Shown: positions 26,120-33,481 of the stretch, piece by piece | Layout: each line of letters opens with the position of its first letter | Numbering within the stretch: the stretch's first letter is position 1 | Source: an uncultured Chloroflexia bacterium | GTDB taxonomy: Bacteria; Chloroflexota; Limnocylindria; Limnocylindrales; CSP1-4 | Reading direction: 5' to 3' | DNA: 64,000 nucleotides | Assembly (NCBI GenBank): GCA_963819655.1 | Contig: CAWFXA010000003.1 | Location: forward strand, 192,149-256,148 | Notes under the pieces: model-generated | Told to the model about the DNA's origin: nothing | The model's database searches: none | The model's input: only the letters and a program-made list of their open reading frames with translations | Position numbers and translations under genes: made by a program

Positions 26120-26308
26120 CTAGCGGGACCGAGCCAGCTCCAGTGCGGTGGCCGCAGCGATCCGCTCGCCCATCGCGATGACGCGACGACCGATCGATCG
26201 GCGGATGGATGGGCGGCTGGGCTGGATCTGGCGCGCACGCGCCCTCTCCGCGATCAGCTGCTCCTGGCGCTCACGCGCCAGCTCCAATGCGATCTGGTTG
26301 AAGTTCAT
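26120..26308 (-). CDS. hypothetical small protein (62 aa)
   Basis: The only ORF in the 250-bp gap between the ABC ATPase and permease genes. Helical, charged composition. Weak support. Confidence 0.2.
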   Translation of the reverse strand: MNFNQIALELARERQEQLIAERARARQIQPSRPSIRRSIGRRVIAMGERIAAATALELARSR

Positions 26309-27725: not shown

Positions 27726-28349
27726 TCACGGTCCTCCAGGTCGACGTGGCCGCCGTGGGCGGATGGCGCGTCGGACGATCGAGCGCGGTTTCGCTGCGCC
27801 GGATGCCGCACGTCGCTCGACGACCTTGAAGGCTGCTCGCTCGAACATGGCGAGCGTGCCGCGGAATGCGTCCCCCGCGGGGATCCGCTCGCCGGCGGGG
27901 ATATCGACCGGATAGGCCTCGAGCGTCGTGGCCCCGTGATCACGGGCGTAGTCGACGCCGGCATCCAGCAGCGCCCGCGCGACCCCGCGCCCGCGTGACT
28001 GACGACCGACGACGAAGCAGACGATCGACCAGACGGGCTTGTCGTCGAGCGGAGCGAGGACCTTGGAGTGCGCGAGCCGCTCGTAGTCCTCGCGCGGACC
28101 GATGCTGATCCAGCCGACCGCCTCGGTGCCGTCGTAGGCCACCAGACCGGGGGCGCGACCCTCATCGGCCGTCTCGGCGACGGCAGCCTCCATGACCGAC
28201 CGATGTCTGGCCTTGCCACCGCTGGAGAAGTCGAACCCACGGATCCGGAAGTAGGCGCACCAGCACCACTTCGGGTCGCCACCCTGCTCGAAGAGTGACG
28301 CGAGGTCCGGGAGGCGATCGGGAGTGAGGGGCCGGATGTCGATAGCCAT
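27726..28349 (-). CDS. GNAT family N-acetyltransferase
   Basis: Acetyl-CoA binding motif VVGRQSRGRGVARALLDAGVDYARDHGA. Confidence 0.7.
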   Translation of the reverse strand: MAIDIRPLTPDRLPDLASLFEQGGDPKWCWCAYFRIRGFDFSSGGKARHRSVMEAAVAETADEGRAPGLVAYDGTEAVGWISIGPREDYERLAHSKVLAPLDDKPVWSIVCFVVGRQSRGRGVARALLDAGVDYARDHGATTLEAYPVDIPAGERIPAGDAFRGTLAMFERAAFKVVERRAASGAAKPRSIVRRAIRPRRPRRPGGP

Positions 28350-28520
28350 CTTGGCGATCGTACGTGCTGAGGTGACCGCGGTCCGTCATGAACCCGTGCC
28401 GGCCGTGGTTTGGTGCCGCATTGGGTCACCTCATGACCATTCCGGAGAACGAGCGCTTTGATCGACGGCCGTCGGGGCCTCGTCGGGTCACCCGACGACA
28501 CATCCGACGCTCGAGCGCTG

Positions 28521-28614
28521 GCTCAGGCCTCGATACGGTCACGGGGTGACACATCAGGCCGTCGAGCGGCCCCCATCCTCTGCTCAGGTTCCGATACGGT
28601 CACCGGGTGACACA
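28521..28614. promoter_or_regulatory. tandem ~33-bp direct repeat, each copy carrying a 13-bp palindrome GTCAC-N3-GTGAC (candidate paired operator)
   Basis: Copy 1 at 28521-28553 (palindrome GTCACGGGGTGAC, 28538-28550). Copy 2 at 28582-28614 (GTCACCGGGTGAC, 28599-28611). Centre-to-centre spacing is 61 bp. Copy 2 overlaps the first in-frame start of the downstream ATPase ORF. Confidence 0.45.
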
Positions 28615-29617
28615 GGGCCCGCCCGGTGCAGCCGCCAGGTCCCGCCACGCCCGTTTGACGCTCCTCGGACCCCGGCCGTACGCTCCGCCCGTGGCCGAGA
28701 CCTCGCCGGGGCGGGGCCGGTGGACCATCCGCCACGTCCCACCGACGCCGCGCTCGATCGTCGAGCTGATCCGTGCCGGCACGCTCGATGCGGAGCTGGC
28801 GGCGACCCTGTGGGTCCTGATCGAGAGCCGGGTCCCGCTCGTCGTCGCGGCACGTGTCCAAGGTGCCGGCAAGACCACGCTTCTCGACGCTCTGATGGTG
28901 TTCCTCCCGCCAGGTGTGCGGACGATGGAGCTGGCCGGCGCGATGGAGACGTTCGACTGGCTCCCGCAGGCTCCGGAGCTGGGCTGGCGTCGCCCCCACG
29001 CACCGGACGCGATCGCCGCACGGGTCACCGGCCGCCAGCCCCCTGCGATCACACCCGACAACACGGTCCTCCTGATCCCTGAGCTGTCCGACCACCTGCC
29101 GTCCTACACGTGGGGCGCGGAGGCACGCATCGCGATCCGGGCGGTGGCGATCGGTTACGGGCTGGCCGCGACGATCCACGCCGACTCGCTCGACGAGGTC
29201 TTCGAGGAGCTTCGCCACCCGCCGGTGAGCCTCGGCGACGACGAGCTCTCGCGGCTCGGCGTCGTGCTCGTTGTGCGACCGGTCGGGGACGGGCTGCGCC
29301 GGGTCGCTGCCGCCCACTACGTCCGCCCGGTCGCGCGCGATGAGCACGGACACGTCCAGCGGCTCGGGCCGGCCGTACTGGCCACCTGGGACCCGAATGG
29401 CGATCGGTTCGAGCACTTCGGCTGGGGCATCATCCCCGAGCTCGCGCGGCGGGTCGAGCGGCGCCCGGGCGACTTCGAAGTCGATGTCGATCGTCGGCGC
29501 GACTACCTCGCCGGTCTTGCCGAGGCCGGCATCGTCGATGTCGATGCCGTCCGCGCTGCCATCGAAGGCTTCCGAGCCACGACCGTCGATCCTTCCAGCG
29601 TCCTCGCCACGAACTGA
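28607..29617 (+). CDS. divergent CpaF/VirB11-like (type II/IV secretion ATPase family) P-loop protein, possibly catalytically degenerate; start uncertain
   Basis: GTLDAELAATLWVLIESRVPLVVAARVQGAGKTTLLDALMVFLPPGVRTMEL matches the secretion-ATPase core. ATIHADSLDEVFEEL matches the conserved His-box. The Walker B / catalytic Glu region is atypical (LLIPELSD). No pilus or secretion genes are nearby. Alternative GTG start at 28691. Confidence 0.6.
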   Translation: MTQGPPGAAARSRHARLTLLGPRPYAPPVAETSPGRGRWTIRHVPPTPRSIVELIRAGTLDAELAATLWVLIESRVPLVVAARVQGAGKTTLLDALMVFLPPGVRTMELAGAMETFDWLPQAPELGWRRPHAPDAIAARVTGRQPPAITPDNTVLLIPELSDHLPSYTWGAEARIAIRAVAIGYGLAATIHADSLDEVFEELRHPPVSLGDDELSRLGVVLVVRPVGDGLRRVAAAHYVRPVARDEHGHVQRLGPAVLATWDPNGDRFEHFGWGIIPELARRVERRPGDFEVDVDRRRDYLAGLAEAGIVDVDAVRAAIEGFRATTVDPSSVLATN

Positions 29618-29627
29618 GGTCCCAGCG

Positions 29628-31070
29628 ATGCCGACCCCCGCGCGCCCCGCCACGATCGCCGAGCTGCGGGCCGCCGGGTGGCGCTCGCGGACCGTCAAGG
29701 AGGAGCTTCGTGCGAACCTCCTCGACCGCCTGGGCTCCGGTGACGACGTGCTACCCGGGATCGTCGGCTACGAAGACTCGGTCGTCCCCGCGATCGAGAA
29801 CGCGATCCTCGCCGGGCACGACCTGGTCTTCCTCGGCGAACGCGGCCAGGCGAAGACGCGTATGGCACGGCTGCTCGTCGGGCTGCTCGATGAATGGCTG
29901 CCGGTCGTCCGCGGTGGCGACCTGAACGACGACCCGTACGCCCCCGTCTCACCCGCGGCCCGCGCGATCATCGAGCGCGACGGCGACGACGCGCCGATCG
30001 ACTGGCTGCCACGTGACCGGCGCTATGCCGAGAAGCTGGCGACACCGGACATCACCATCGCCGACCTCATCGGCGAGGTCGATCCGATCAAGGTCGCAGA
30101 GGGTCGCTACTTGTCCGACGAGCTGACGCTTCATTACGGGCTGATCCCGCGCGCGAACAGGGGCATCGTCGCGATCAATGAGCTGCCCGACCTGGCGGAG
30201 CGGATCCAGGTCGGACTGCTGAACGTACTCGAGGAACGCGACGTCCAGATCCGTGGCTTCATCGTCCGGTTGCCGTTGGACCTGTATGTCGTCGCGAGCG
30301 CCAACCCCGAGGACTACACGTCGCGCGGCCGCATCATCACGCCGCTCAAGGATCGCCTCGGGTCGCAGATCCGGACGCACTACCCGCGCTCTCTCGACGA
30401 CGAGCTGTTGATCGTGGCGCAGGAGAAGCACCGCTTCCCGGTGGCCTCGGATCCCGATGTCGCAGCCCCGACCGTGGTCGTGCCTCCGTTCATGGAGGAG
30501 GTCGTGGCCGAGATCACGCACCTCGCCCGGCGCTCCCCGGAGATCAGCCAGCGCTCGGGTGTGTCGGTCCGGGTTTCCGTCGCGAACATGGAGGTCCTCG
30601 AGGCAGCGGCATTGAAGCGCGCGGTGCGTCTCGGCGAGGCCGTCGGTGCGCCGCGCGTCTCGGATCTCGGAGCGGTCGTCGCCTCGACCGTCGGCAAGGT
30701 CGAGCTCGAATCGGTCGGCGACGAGGCGCCCGAGGAGCGCGTCGTCGAGCGCCTCATCACGAAGGCCCTGTACGCGACGTTCAACCGGCGCGTGACCCTC
30801 GACGACCTCGACCCGATCGTCGAGGCATTCGAGGACGGCTTCATCGTCGAGACGGGCGAGCGGACGCCGTCACGCGAGTACGTGGCGTGGTTGCGTGAGG
30901 TTCCCGGGATGGATGACGCCGTGGCCGGCCTCGGCACGTTCGATGTCACCGATGGGGCCGAGGAGCCCGCGGTCGTCGCATCGGCCGTCGAGTTCCTGCT
31001 CGAAGGGCTCCACCTCGCCCGCCGGCTGAACAAGGAGCGGGTCGCGGGCGGGACGGTCTACCACCGATGA
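29628..31070 (+). CDS. ChlI/BchI-like (Mg-chelatase family) AAA+ ATPase
   Basis: GIVGYEDSVVPAIENAILAGHDLVFLGERGQAKTRMARLLVGLLDEWLP parallels the BchI motif IVGQEEMK ... GDRGTGKST ... LLP. Walker B GIVAINELPD. GAGG RBS before ATG at 29628. Confidence 0.75.
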   Translation: MPTPARPATIAELRAAGWRSRTVKEELRANLLDRLGSGDDVLPGIVGYEDSVVPAIENAILAGHDLVFLGERGQAKTRMARLLVGLLDEWLPVVRGGDLNDDPYAPVSPAARAIIERDGDDAPIDWLPRDRRYAEKLATPDITIADLIGEVDPIKVAEGRYLSDELTLHYGLIPRANRGIVAINELPDLAERIQVGLLNVLEERDVQIRGFIVRLPLDLYVVASANPEDYTSRGRIITPLKDRLGSQIRTHYPRSLDDELLIVAQEKHRFPVASDPDVAAPTVVVPPFMEEVVAEITHLARRSPEISQRSGVSVRVSVANMEVLEAAALKRAVRLGEAVGAPRVSDLGAVVASTVGKVELESVGDEAPEERVVERLITKALYATFNRRVTLDDLDPIVEAFEDGFIVETGERTPSREYVAWLREVPGMDDAVAGLGTFDVTDGAEEPAVVASAVEFLLEGLHLARRLNKERVAGGTVYHR

Positions 31071-31119
31071 TCGGTTCAGGGATCCGGGCGCTGCCGGTCC
31101 CACTCCCAGGCGCGCGCGC

Positions 31120-31360
31120 TGACCGACGGTCAACGTTGATGTCCGGCACCTTGGAGCGCGCTGACCGTGGGTCAACGTACCGGTCGCAAACGGCTGCCGA
31201 CGGGCGCCTGGCGACGTCTACGTTGCCCGTCGGTAACCAAGGGTCCGCGATGACGGGCCCCCAGAGCGTCACTGCGCCCCTTCGTGCCAAGATCGTTGAC
31301 CCTGGGTCAGCGCGGCGACGGTCCATGGCGTTGTTGCCCAAGATCGTTGACCGTGGGTCA
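31120..31360. repeat. four copies of a 13-bp palindrome TGACC-N3-GGTCA in two direct-repeat pairs within the intergenic spacer
   Basis: TGACCGACGGTCA at 31120-31132 and TGACCGTGGGTCA at 31162-31174, both in gcgcgcTGACC..GGTCAacgt context. TGACCCTGGGTCA at 31297-31309 and TGACCGTGGGTCA at 31348-31360, both in ccaagatcgtTGACC..GGTCAgcgcgg context. Confidence 0.45.
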
Positions 31361-31380
31361 GCGCGGGACGGGCCGTCGTC

Positions 31381-33481
31381 GTGACCGCCTACTCGCCCGA
31401 CCCGCGTGACCTCGCCGGGCGCGTCCCGGTGCCACCTGAAGCGGACGGGACGCTGGCCGGTCGCGCGCGATACTCGCGCTGGGACGGCACGCAGCGTCTG
31501 CCCGACCTCGAGGCTGACGAGATCCTCAAGGCGCTGTCCGACGACGTCATGGCGGAGGGAGATCTGGCCGAGGCGCTGCGCCGGCTGATGGACCGCGGTT
31601 GGCGGAGCGGCGATCCGACCCGCCCGGACATGCCCGGCCTCCAGGATCTGATGGAACGTCTGGCGCGCCGTCGCGAGGAGCTGCGCGAGCGGTACGACCT
31701 CGGCGACGTCCTAGGCGACATTCGGCACGAGCTCGAGGAGATCGTGGCCGACGAGCGATCGGGCGTGGAGCGGCGCCTGGAGCGGGCCGCGGAAGACGCG
31801 CCCGATGCGGACACCGCGCGCGTGGCGCAGGACCTCGCCGCTCGGCGCCTGGACCGTCTCGATGCACTCCCGCCCGACCTCGGCGAGCGGATCCGCGACC
31901 TGCGTGAGTACGACTTCCTCGAGCAGGACGCACGCCAGCGCTTCGACGAGCTCGTCGAGCGGCTGAGCAAGCAAGTCCTCGACCAGTTCGCGCAGGGGAT
32001 GAGCGACGCCATCCGCTCGATGACGCCGGAGGACCTCAGCGCGAATCGCGAGATGGTCCGCGACCTCAACGACCTCATCCGCCAGAGGATCGGTGGGCAG
32101 GACCCGGACGTCCGCGACTTCCTCGCGAAGCACGGGCGGTTCTTTCCTGGCGCCCAGACCTTCGACGACATCATCGACCAGCTGGCGCAGCGGATGGCCG
32201 CGATGCAGTCGCTCATGCGCTCGCTCAGCCCGGAGCAGCGCGCCGAGCTCGAATCGATGATGGAAGCGCTCTTACGCGACGACCGCCTCGTGATCGACCT
32301 CGCGCAGCTCGCCTCGAACCTCGATCTGCTGCTCCCCGGCGGGCTCGGCGATCGCGTGCGTTTCAGCGGCGATGAGTCGCTGTCGCTCGATGGCGCCCTC
32401 TCCCAGATCGCCCGGATGCAGGCCATGGAGCGCCTCGAGGATTCACTCATGGACGTCGAAGCACCCGGCGATCTCGCCGCGATCGACCGCGACGACGTCC
32501 GCGAGCTCATGGGCGACGACGCCGCCCGCGAGCTCGACGCCCTCGATGACCTCGCCCGGCGCCTGGAGGAAGCCGGCTACCTGACGCGCGACGGCGAGCG
32601 GCTCGAGCTGACCCCGCGCGGGACGCGGAAGATCGGCCAGCAGGTCCTCGACGACCTGTTCGCCCGCCTCGCAGCGCGACGCATTCGGCGGTCACCGCAT
32701 CGATCGGCAGGGGCGGGGCGGCGAGCGTGAGGAGACCACGAAGCCGTACGAGTTCGGGGATCCATTCCACCTGGACCTGCGCGGCACGCTGTCCAACGCC
32801 ATGGTCCGCGAGGAGAACGCGCCGGCGGCGCGAGCCGCCCGCGGCGAGCGCGGTGTCAGGCTGATACCGGACGATTTCGAGGTCTATCGCACCGAGCAGC
32901 TCACCAGCACCGCGACCGTCCTGCTCGTCGACATGAGCCGCTCGATGCTTCTGCGCGGCTGTTTCCTGGCGGCCAAGAAGGTCGCGATCGCCCTCGACAC
33001 GCTGATCCGGACGCAGTACCCGCGCGACCACCTGTCGGTCATCGGCTTCGCGTATTACGCGCGGGAGATCCGGCCGGGCGCCCTGGCCGAGCTGACCTGG
33101 CACGGCTATGAGTACGGCACCAACCTCCAGCACGGGCTGATGCTCGCCCGTCGGATCCTGGCGCGGCAGGCCGCTTCGAACCGCGAGATCGTGGTGATCA
33201 CGGACGGTGAGCCAACCGCCCACTTCGAAGGCGGCCAGGTCGAGTTCAGCTACCCACCGACCCGGCGCACCATCAGCGAGACCCTCCGCGAGGTGCAGCG
33301 CTGCACGAAGGAGGGCATCACGATCAACACGTTCATGCTCGAGCGGTCGCGCGCCCTGGCCGAGTTCGTCGCCCACATGACGAAGCTCAACCGCGGTCGG
33401 GCGTTCTACGCGACGCCGGAACGCCTCGGTGAGTACGTGCTGGTCGACTTCGTCGGACGGCGCTCGAAGCGGGTGTCGTAG
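31381..33481 (+). CDS. VWA-domain protein with long N-terminal acidic/coiled-coil region (ChlD/CobT-like partner of the ChlI-like ATPase); +1 frame break near 32665-32680
   Basis: The 449-aa N-terminal ORF (GTG at 31381) has a helical, D/E/R-rich composition. The second frame carries the MIDAS motifs VLLVDMSRSM ... VVITDGEPTA. The frames join through ...DLFARLA | RDAFGGHRIDRQGRGGEREETTKPYEFGDPFHLDLRGT. Confidence 0.75.

Follow-up and report, generated by a model that had tools for sequence, protein, structure and literature searches.

In an uncultured soil bacterium of the Chloroflexota, two nearly identical 33-nt palindromic elements lie in the spacer between a GNAT acetyltransferase gene and a divergent operon for a P-loop ATPase, a ChlI/MoxR-like AAA+ protein and a VWA protein, and the question raised by this locus is whether such elements are binding sites for a regulator and, if so, of which promoter. 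A preliminary description of the DNA had read their geometry as suited to a dimeric regulator acting in trans, which would bind cooperatively at two operators or loop the DNA, the second copy overlapping the first possible start codon of the ATPase gene. Here, we analyzed the spacer by repeat searches, profile HMMs and comparison with related loci, within a window that comprises the whole stretch of 64,000 nt under study (64 kb).

The 33-nt pair

The two copies have the following positions, without assigned strand:

28521 to 28553: copy 1 (unit 3 of the array described below), palindrome GTCACGGGGTGAC at 28538 to 28550, centered at about -147 relative to the ATPase start
28582 to 28614: copy 2 (unit 4 of the array), palindrome GTCACCGGGTGAC at 28599 to 28611, centered at about -86 relative to the ATPase start

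The repeat search bore out the described geometry of two near-identical copies 61 nt apart, start to start, with 88% identity, and the pair ranks first among the local direct repeats of the entire window. The GTCAC-N3-GTGAC palindrome reported for each copy is likewise genuine: GTCACNNNGTGAC is present at 28538-28550 and at 28599-28611 and nowhere else in the 64 kb, versus 0.07 occurrences expected, and none of 100 shuffles reached two. A high frequency of the motif in coding DNA, which had been named as grounds for discarding it, is thereby not observed. A search for the 22-nt core GATACGGTCACNGGGTGACACA that tolerated as many as three mismatches gave just these two copies in the 64 kb (expectation 0.00). 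The pair is confirmed as real and far above chance. Identity drops abruptly at the edges of the 33-nt element, and the 28-nt stretches located 3' of each copy are unrelated.

Gene starts and promoters on both sides of the spacer

ATPase-based scans of metagenomes and genomes yielded 127 loci, the named ones all from uncultured Chloroflexota and mostly from Limnocylindrales/Limnocylindria (L numbers below). Their comparison with the window defines the following features:

28691 to 29617, plus strand: gene for a FlaI/VirB11-like P-loop ATPase of 308 aa, delimited by homologue lengths and the conserved promoter
28655 to 28684, plus strand: predicted ATPase promoter, with -35 TTGACG at 28655-28660, an 18-nt spacer and -10 TACGCT at 28679-28684
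27726 to 28349, minus strand: divergent GNAT acetyltransferase gene, with its ATG 7 nt after a conserved -10
28357 to 28362, minus strand: GNAT -10 TACGAT, conserved in relatives

The longest ATPase open reading frame (28607-29617, 336 aa) begins at the first possible start codon, GTG 28607, which is included in copy 2. Most of the 2,146 ATPase homologues are about 308 aa long and cover 92% of this frame. Directly 5' of the conserved N-terminus MAE/MAD, all related loci contain CGTTTGACGCTCC...GCCGTACGCT, and the promoter pattern matched at 121 promoter positions in the loci fetched from relatives and the window. From the homologue lengths and the conserved -35/-10 elements, the ATPase start is therefore placed at GTG 28691; the conserved promoter lies 3' of GTG 28607, so that the latter is spurious and cannot be the start. 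The reported overlap of copy 2 with the start codon thus does not hold: its end is separated by 40 nt from the -35 element and by 77 nt from the start codon at 28691. The promoter was identified by conservation, and a generic sigma-70 promoter/terminator scan of 28200-28900 made no call, the ATPase promoter included.

The repeat region is GC-rich and open in the ATPase frame, and for this reason gene callers over-extend the ATPase, giving 336 aa in the window (extension 28607-28690) and 356 aa in P0001 (L056, 1582-2652) for a true length of 308 aa. The array region should therefore be treated with caution in gene calling.

The ATPase -10 element ends 6 nt 5' of GTG 28691, a gap that implies a putatively leaderless ATPase mRNA in the clade of the window. 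On the other side, the GNAT -10 (CGATGGTAGG or GATCGTA when read on the plus strand) is located 7-10 nt from the start, and the distance of just 7 nt before the ATG in the window suggests that the GNAT mRNA is probably leaderless too. The segment CGTTTGACGCTCC-N-GCCGTACGCT (28653-28690 in the window) is found, extremely conserved, at almost every fetched locus, including those whose protein identity is as low as about 50%. This conservation extends past the two hexamers, which suggests that an additional factor may be bound at the ATPase promoter. In distant relatives, the same promoter motif comes with an added leader (about 55 nt) that includes GGAG and a CGAAC...GTTCG hairpin, for which an Rfam search returned no match.

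Two other promoter-type interpretations of the repeats were rejected. A sigma-54 -24/-12 element (GGCACG-N-TTTGACGC, present in some relatives) is at odds with the GG, for which conservation breaks down in the window, in L059 and in L006. A leaderless promoter and start of its own in each copy (TACGGT-N6-GTG) fails because TANNNT is not conserved, relatives reading GTTCGGTCAC, and because the open reading frame from 28546 is out of frame.

A four-unit array upstream of both promoters

The repeat search, the profile HMM and the relatives together define an array that extends beyond the pair (no strand assigned):

28404 to 28621: entire four-unit array, its extent given by profile-HMM matches to the unit family
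28424 to 28438: palindrome of unit 1, degenerate (GGTCACCTCATGACC), centered at about -82 relative to the GNAT start, orthologue of the perfect GGTCACCTGGTGACC in L059
28486 to 28500: palindrome of unit 2, decayed (GGTCACCCGACGACA), found by the repeat search and the profile HMM

The palindrome centers are located at 28431, 28493, 28544 and 28605, with spacings of 62, 51 and 61 nt. The 17 nt 3' of the unit 2 palindrome resemble those 3' of unit 3, where an offset of 51 gives 75% identity across 32 nt, and units 3 and 4 have in common 16-17 nt 5' of the palindrome. With a profile HMM built on units from every species, each of the four units of the window is detected, and no other place in the window matches. 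The 33-nt copies are the two youngest and best-preserved units of this array. Tandem Repeats Finder (TRF) called no tandem array in the window, since the units are too diverged. The original description of a plain pair of operators consequently gives way to a different picture, in which the pair makes up the promoter-proximal end of an array of four units, variable in copy number and absent in some relatives.

The array represents additional sequence in the interval between the GNAT promoter and the divergent ATPase promoter, and several relatives lack it; the array is located upstream of both and overlaps neither core promoter. This location bears on the view that the palindromes are hairpins of a structured RNA, whether this is a small RNA or the long 5' leader of a transcript from an unseen upstream promoter. 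Some G-U pairs in the covariation of the palindrome arms and the stems of up to 10 bp in long-form units would suit such an RNA, whereas the array lies upstream of the conserved ATPase -35 and behind the GNAT promoter, and the generic scan found no promoter-like site inside it. Furthermore, the fold z-scores of the two strands against shuffles are non-significant (-1.26 and -1.90), Rfam gives no match at E<=1, and wobble-compatible mismatches are found on both strands. Given the weak z-scores, the lack of an Rfam match and the position upstream of both promoters, an RNA role is discounted as very improbable.

Presence, absence and copy number of the array in relatives

The GNAT-ATPase arrangement is conserved across the relatives and the spacer between the two genes is not. 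Homologous arrays of 1-4 units, with periods of 72, 61-62 or 51-52 bp, occupy the same site in about 15 Limnocylindria contigs (L002-4, L006, L007, L027, L050, L056-59, L065-68 and L072), down to a single site in an 80-nt spacer in L072. In L001/L060 (90% ATPase identity), L010, L012, L063, L070, L071 and L075 there is no array, and the promoters stand back to back across a spacer of about 40-100 bp. Unrelated inserts or repeats occupy the array site in L062, L064, L069, L073 and L074; among these foreign repeats are a tandem of GGGGCCGAACC in L062 and GGCAGAACTTGCAC-type repeats in L064 and L073, and L035/L036 likewise carry unrelated repeats upstream of the ATPase promoter. The spacer is, by this comparison, evidently a hotspot for repeat insertion or expansion.

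The closest relative, L059, with a 94% identical ATPase, contains a pair of perfect sites, GGTCACCTGGTGACC and GGTCACATGGTGACC, at a distance of 52 nt. This relative has the GNAT-proximal 105 nt in common with the window and contains no counterparts of the two 33-nt copies, and the window pair is accordingly a young lineage-specific expansion. Contig L056 differs from L057/L050 by one perfect extra 72-bp unit, visible as a 73-nt identity run at an offset of 72. With this extra unit and the differing unit numbers, the array behaves as a variable-number tandem repeat. The comparisons show an array that grows by tandem duplication and shrinks by deletion, and hence a copy number and period that vary between relatives. 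The exact 19-base core GATACGGTCACNNNGTGACACA has no match among 185,579 species genomes, a collection from which the source genome is consequently absent.

The extra unit in L056 also disposes of a CRISPR mini-array. Its geometry fits, a 33-nt partly palindromic repeat and a 28-nt unrelated stretch adding up to 61 nt; the would-be spacer, however, is duplicated together with the repeat in relatives such as L056, which refutes the interpretation. In addition, there are two copies only, with 88% identity, the arrays are orthologous, with a fixed place between two promoters, and neither cas domains in the neighborhood nor a PADLOC match was found. We regard a CRISPR origin as practically eliminated.

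The same variation is what a non-regulatory palindromic minisatellite would display, that is, a quasi-palindromic unit of about 50-72 bp that arose or inserted once in a tolerant spacer and has since expanded and contracted by slippage or through hairpins. The perfect 72-bp extra unit of L056 against L057 and L050, the patchy presence among close relatives and the unrelated repeats at the site in L062, L064, L069, L073 and L074 all point in this direction, as do the structure of each unit, a long imperfect palindrome in an array that matches its own reverse complement, and the compensatory arm changes, the second palindromic insert in the operon and the lack of a nearby regulator described below. 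The conservation pattern of the units argues the other way.

Conservation and spacing of the units

The best-preserved units, those of L066 and L067, are long imperfect palindromes of the form GYTCGACC-N5-GTTCGGTCAC-CCG-GTGACCGAAC-CGACGAAC plus linker. Relative to the family consensus GTTCGGTCAC-CCG-GTGACCGAAC, the window palindromes are degenerate, with 5-bp arms, and the 33-nt element of the window corresponds to the left block and central dyad of the long-form unit. An alignment of 33 occurrences of the unit shows the strongest conservation in the dyad block, and one C and one G are invariant. L066 and L067 agree fully in their palindromes and flanking blocks, whereas their linkers are scrambled and unalignable. 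Neutral decay would erase palindromes and linkers equally, and the retention of palindromes and flanking blocks across lineages with saturated linkers, together with core bases that are invariant in all units and spacing classes about 10 bp apart, speaks against a minisatellite. We consider the minisatellite the main rival explanation, possible though less likely than an array of protein-binding sites.

The center-to-center spacings of the dyads fall into three classes of 70-73, 61-62 and 51-52 nt, in steps of about 10 bp and with a common helical phase, a pattern that is no more than suggestive, since a rough estimate gives p of 0.02-0.1 on only about three independent events or classes. The outer arm bases differ by lineage with compensatory partners (GGT/ACC, GAA/TTC and TGA/TCA, as well as G-C to A-T and T-A to A-T). 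Arm positions are paired in 72% of cells versus 65% in shuffles, none of 500 shuffles reaching the observed value, a difference that is confounded by lineage. Such compensation fits selection for hairpins as well as it fits co-evolving half-sites of a putative binding protein.

The unit is confined to this locus. Of the 20 matches to GGTCACNNNGTGACC with at most one mismatch in 1.07 Mb, 16 are in the GNAT-ATPase spacer, and the other four are comparable to the approximately five expected by chance (hand estimate). All profile-HMM matches with E<0.1 in the 1.07 Mb are inside this spacer, and no copy of the array unit was found outside it, either in the 64 kb or in the roughly 1 Mb from related loci. 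The unit is thus not spreading, which also counts against a minisatellite. This distribution also bears on a low-copy dispersed mobile palindromic element of the REP/BIME/REPIN or MITE kind with further copies elsewhere in the genome. The imperfectly palindromic unit, its intergenic location and an insertion-like pattern of presence and absence would agree with such an element, and the second palindromic cluster within the operon (31114-31366), with nested 21-nt inverted arms, has a REPIN- or MITE-like look. Against a mobile element, the 64 kb and about 1 Mb of related loci hold no further copy, which by estimate excludes densities above about one per 50 kb; all carriers have it at one orthologous site, which indicates vertical descent, and no transposase or RAYT gene was seen nearby. 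Mobility is, on this evidence, an unlikely explanation.

Anchoring of the array on the GNAT side

In nine lineages, the first dyad is centered at about -60, at 45-48 nt from the GNAT -10; in the window, L059 and L006, it is centered at about -82, at 68-72 nt from the -10. The distance from the last dyad to the ATPase -35 ranges from about 30 to 120 nt across relatives, and the fixed relation to the ATPase promoter implied in the preliminary description is not maintained. These distances suggest that the array may be anchored on the divergent GNAT promoter and not on the ATPase -35, although the constant GNAT-side distance may merely mirror a constrained GNAT promoter in between.

Near the GNAT promoter, a TGACAY-N3-RTGTCA palindrome was observed about 20 nt upstream of the -10, over the expected -35 region, in L012, L062 and L072, which have short spacers; a repressor site is one possibility, a promoter element another. 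At this position, the window has TGAC-N10-GTCA instead.

Operon, second palindromic cluster and search for a regulator

The ATPase gene is followed by two further genes of the operon, with a second palindromic repeat cluster between them:

29628 to 31070, plus strand: ChlI/MoxR-like AAA+ gene, gene 2 of the operon
31114 to 31366, plus strand: second cluster, four TGACC-N3-GGTCA sites, in the 310-nt ChlI-like/VWA gap at 31071-31380
31381 to 33481, plus strand: Rv0959-like VWA gene, gene 3 of the operon, with a frameshift near 32661-32672

All four sites of the second cluster are perfect; two forward sites are 42 nt apart and two inverted ones 51 nt apart (29 nt, 97% identity), and together they build the nested 21-nt inverted arms. 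The RNA fold z-score of the cluster is -3.3, and an Rfam search with it returned no match. In most relatives, the ChlI-like/VWA gap is just 12-31 nt. The insert is also present in L059, L061 and L062, and a TTGGCT-N3-AGCCAA version in L058 and L065. Possible identities of this insert are a MITE/REPIN-like element and an intercistronic RNA structure. Since L058 and L065 read TTGGCT/AGCCAA in this cluster, the GGTCA half-site common to both clusters is probably a coincidence. In the split VWA gene, residues 1-430 of the L058 orthologue align to frame 1 and residues 434-702 to frame 2, indicating either a pseudogene or an assembly indel error.

Annotation of the surroundings out to about 6 kb, both in the window and at the syntenic loci L001 and L058, includes no gene for a DNA-binding regulator. 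The statement that no regulator gene is adjacent is therefore upheld over this distance, and control in trans is a fair inference from it. PADLOC gave no meaningful defence-system matches near the array, and a literature search on GGTCAC/GTGACC operators produced nothing relevant. A conserved 62-aa open reading frame (26120-26308, minus strand) with a strong ribosome-binding site, located between genes for an ABC ATPase and an ABC-2 permease, is called in L001 and L058 as well. As a hidden GntR-like regulator it was rejected, its PdhR match being at chance level (E=0.003), with no Pfam match and a helical low-complexity sequence with ALELAR repeats.

Comparison with known systems

Lambda OR/OL and the deo, gal, ara and nag systems are examples of regions in which several operators or upstream activating sites are placed in helical phase between divergent promoters. 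By analogy, the array would work most like these regions: its dyads of 13-23 bp are placed at near-integral helical turns in a divergent promoter region, with the sites conserved and the spacers drifting. Unlike them, it has no adjacent cognate regulator, the number of sites varies and some close relatives lack the array; moreover, the sites overlap neither core promoter and lie at variable distances from the ATPase promoter.

The partition centromere sopC of the F plasmid consists of 43-bp repeats in tandem, each of which includes a 7-bp inverted repeat and is bound by SopB. The array resembles it in its head-to-tail units of about 40-70 bp with one short inverted repeat each, next to an ATPase gene. 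However, this ATPase is FlaI/VirB11-like (FlaI/TadA-type models match weakly) and not ParA/SopA, the neighbors are AAA+ and VWA genes without a ParB/SopB-like one, the locus is chromosomal and syntenic, and there are 1-4 units only. The combination of an adjacent ParA-type ATPase and a ParB-type protein that marks partition centromeres is thus not found here.

In mycobacteria, the VNTR minisatellites of the MIRU type make up a family with members at dozens of loci. Intergenic head-to-tail units of 51-72 bp with a copy number that varies among close strains are common to both, and the array accordingly agrees with VNTRs in its head-to-tail units, within the 40-100 bp range, and strain differences. 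It departs from MIRU in that the unit is found at one locus only, and not at several, and is strongly palindromic, with palindromes conserved in distant relatives. The REP, BIME and REPIN extragenic palindromes are dispersed, occur at 3' ends of genes and are associated with a RAYT transposase. The array shares with them the clustering of imperfect palindromic units in extragenic DNA and the compensatory arm changes; in contrast to these families and to MITEs, many copies at unrelated loci were not detected in the 64 kb and about 1 Mb of related sequence, no RAYT was seen, and the units are located between divergent promoters.

Proposed mechanism and its significance

Taken together, the comparisons are best explained by a putative phased array of binding sites for a trans-acting protein, built by tandem duplication and deletion and common to two divergent promoters, a reading to which we give roughly an even chance on the strength of sequence comparison. 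According to this model, the array would be located in a putatively untranscribed spacer between two divergent, probably leaderless promoters, that of the GNAT gene on the left and that of the ATPase/AAA+/VWA operon on the right. A dimeric DNA-binding protein encoded elsewhere would recognize the dyad NNNCAC-N3-GTGNNN. With units about 5, 6 or 7 helical turns apart, the bound dimers would lie on one face of the DNA and could interact, and the array would modulate one or both flanking promoters, the GNAT promoter in the first place, as its anchoring suggests.

The idea of operators for a dimeric regulator thus survives in part: dyad symmetry, non-random occurrence, the location in an intergenic regulatory site, the maintenance of the palindromes and the spacing classes of about 10 bp agree with it, and the picture of two operators does not stand. 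In favor of the operator array are the non-random dyads, their position between predicted promoters, their conservation at orthologous sites and their restriction to one locus. Against it counts that the array is dispensable in close relatives (L060, with 90% ATPase identity) and that contigs which are nearly identical still differ in copy number, a behavior also seen in neutral minisatellites. Further points against it are that no regulator gene is found within about 6 kb and no second genomic target was found, that the distance to the ATPase -35 is variable and the window sites have 5-bp arms only, that the compensatory arm changes, confounded by lineage, are those expected from selection for hairpins, and that a second, different palindromic insert in the same operon indicates a lineage that accumulates such repeats.

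A more far-reaching version of the operator array, in which slippage alters the number and spacing of the operators by whole units or helical turns and so provides an evolvable expression dial for GNAT and the conserved ATPase/MoxR-like/VWA operon of Limnocylindria, appears improbable to us. Such a dial might act jointly with the second palindromic module at 31114-31366, and the array-binding protein might itself be encoded in the operon, the VWA protein having a HemN_C-type winged-helix segment.

If the array is a neutral minisatellite, it would chiefly be of use as a strain-typing marker. The motif, the lineage and the array are new; the underlying principle is already known, and the general view of gene regulation is unchanged. 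If the array of operators is real, it would constitute a first cis-regulatory motif and promoter architecture (TTGACG-N17/18-TACGCT with leaderless starts) for Limnocylindria, an abundant uncultured soil class of Chloroflexota, and it would provide an example of regulatory sites that evolve via tandem duplication in helical-turn quanta.
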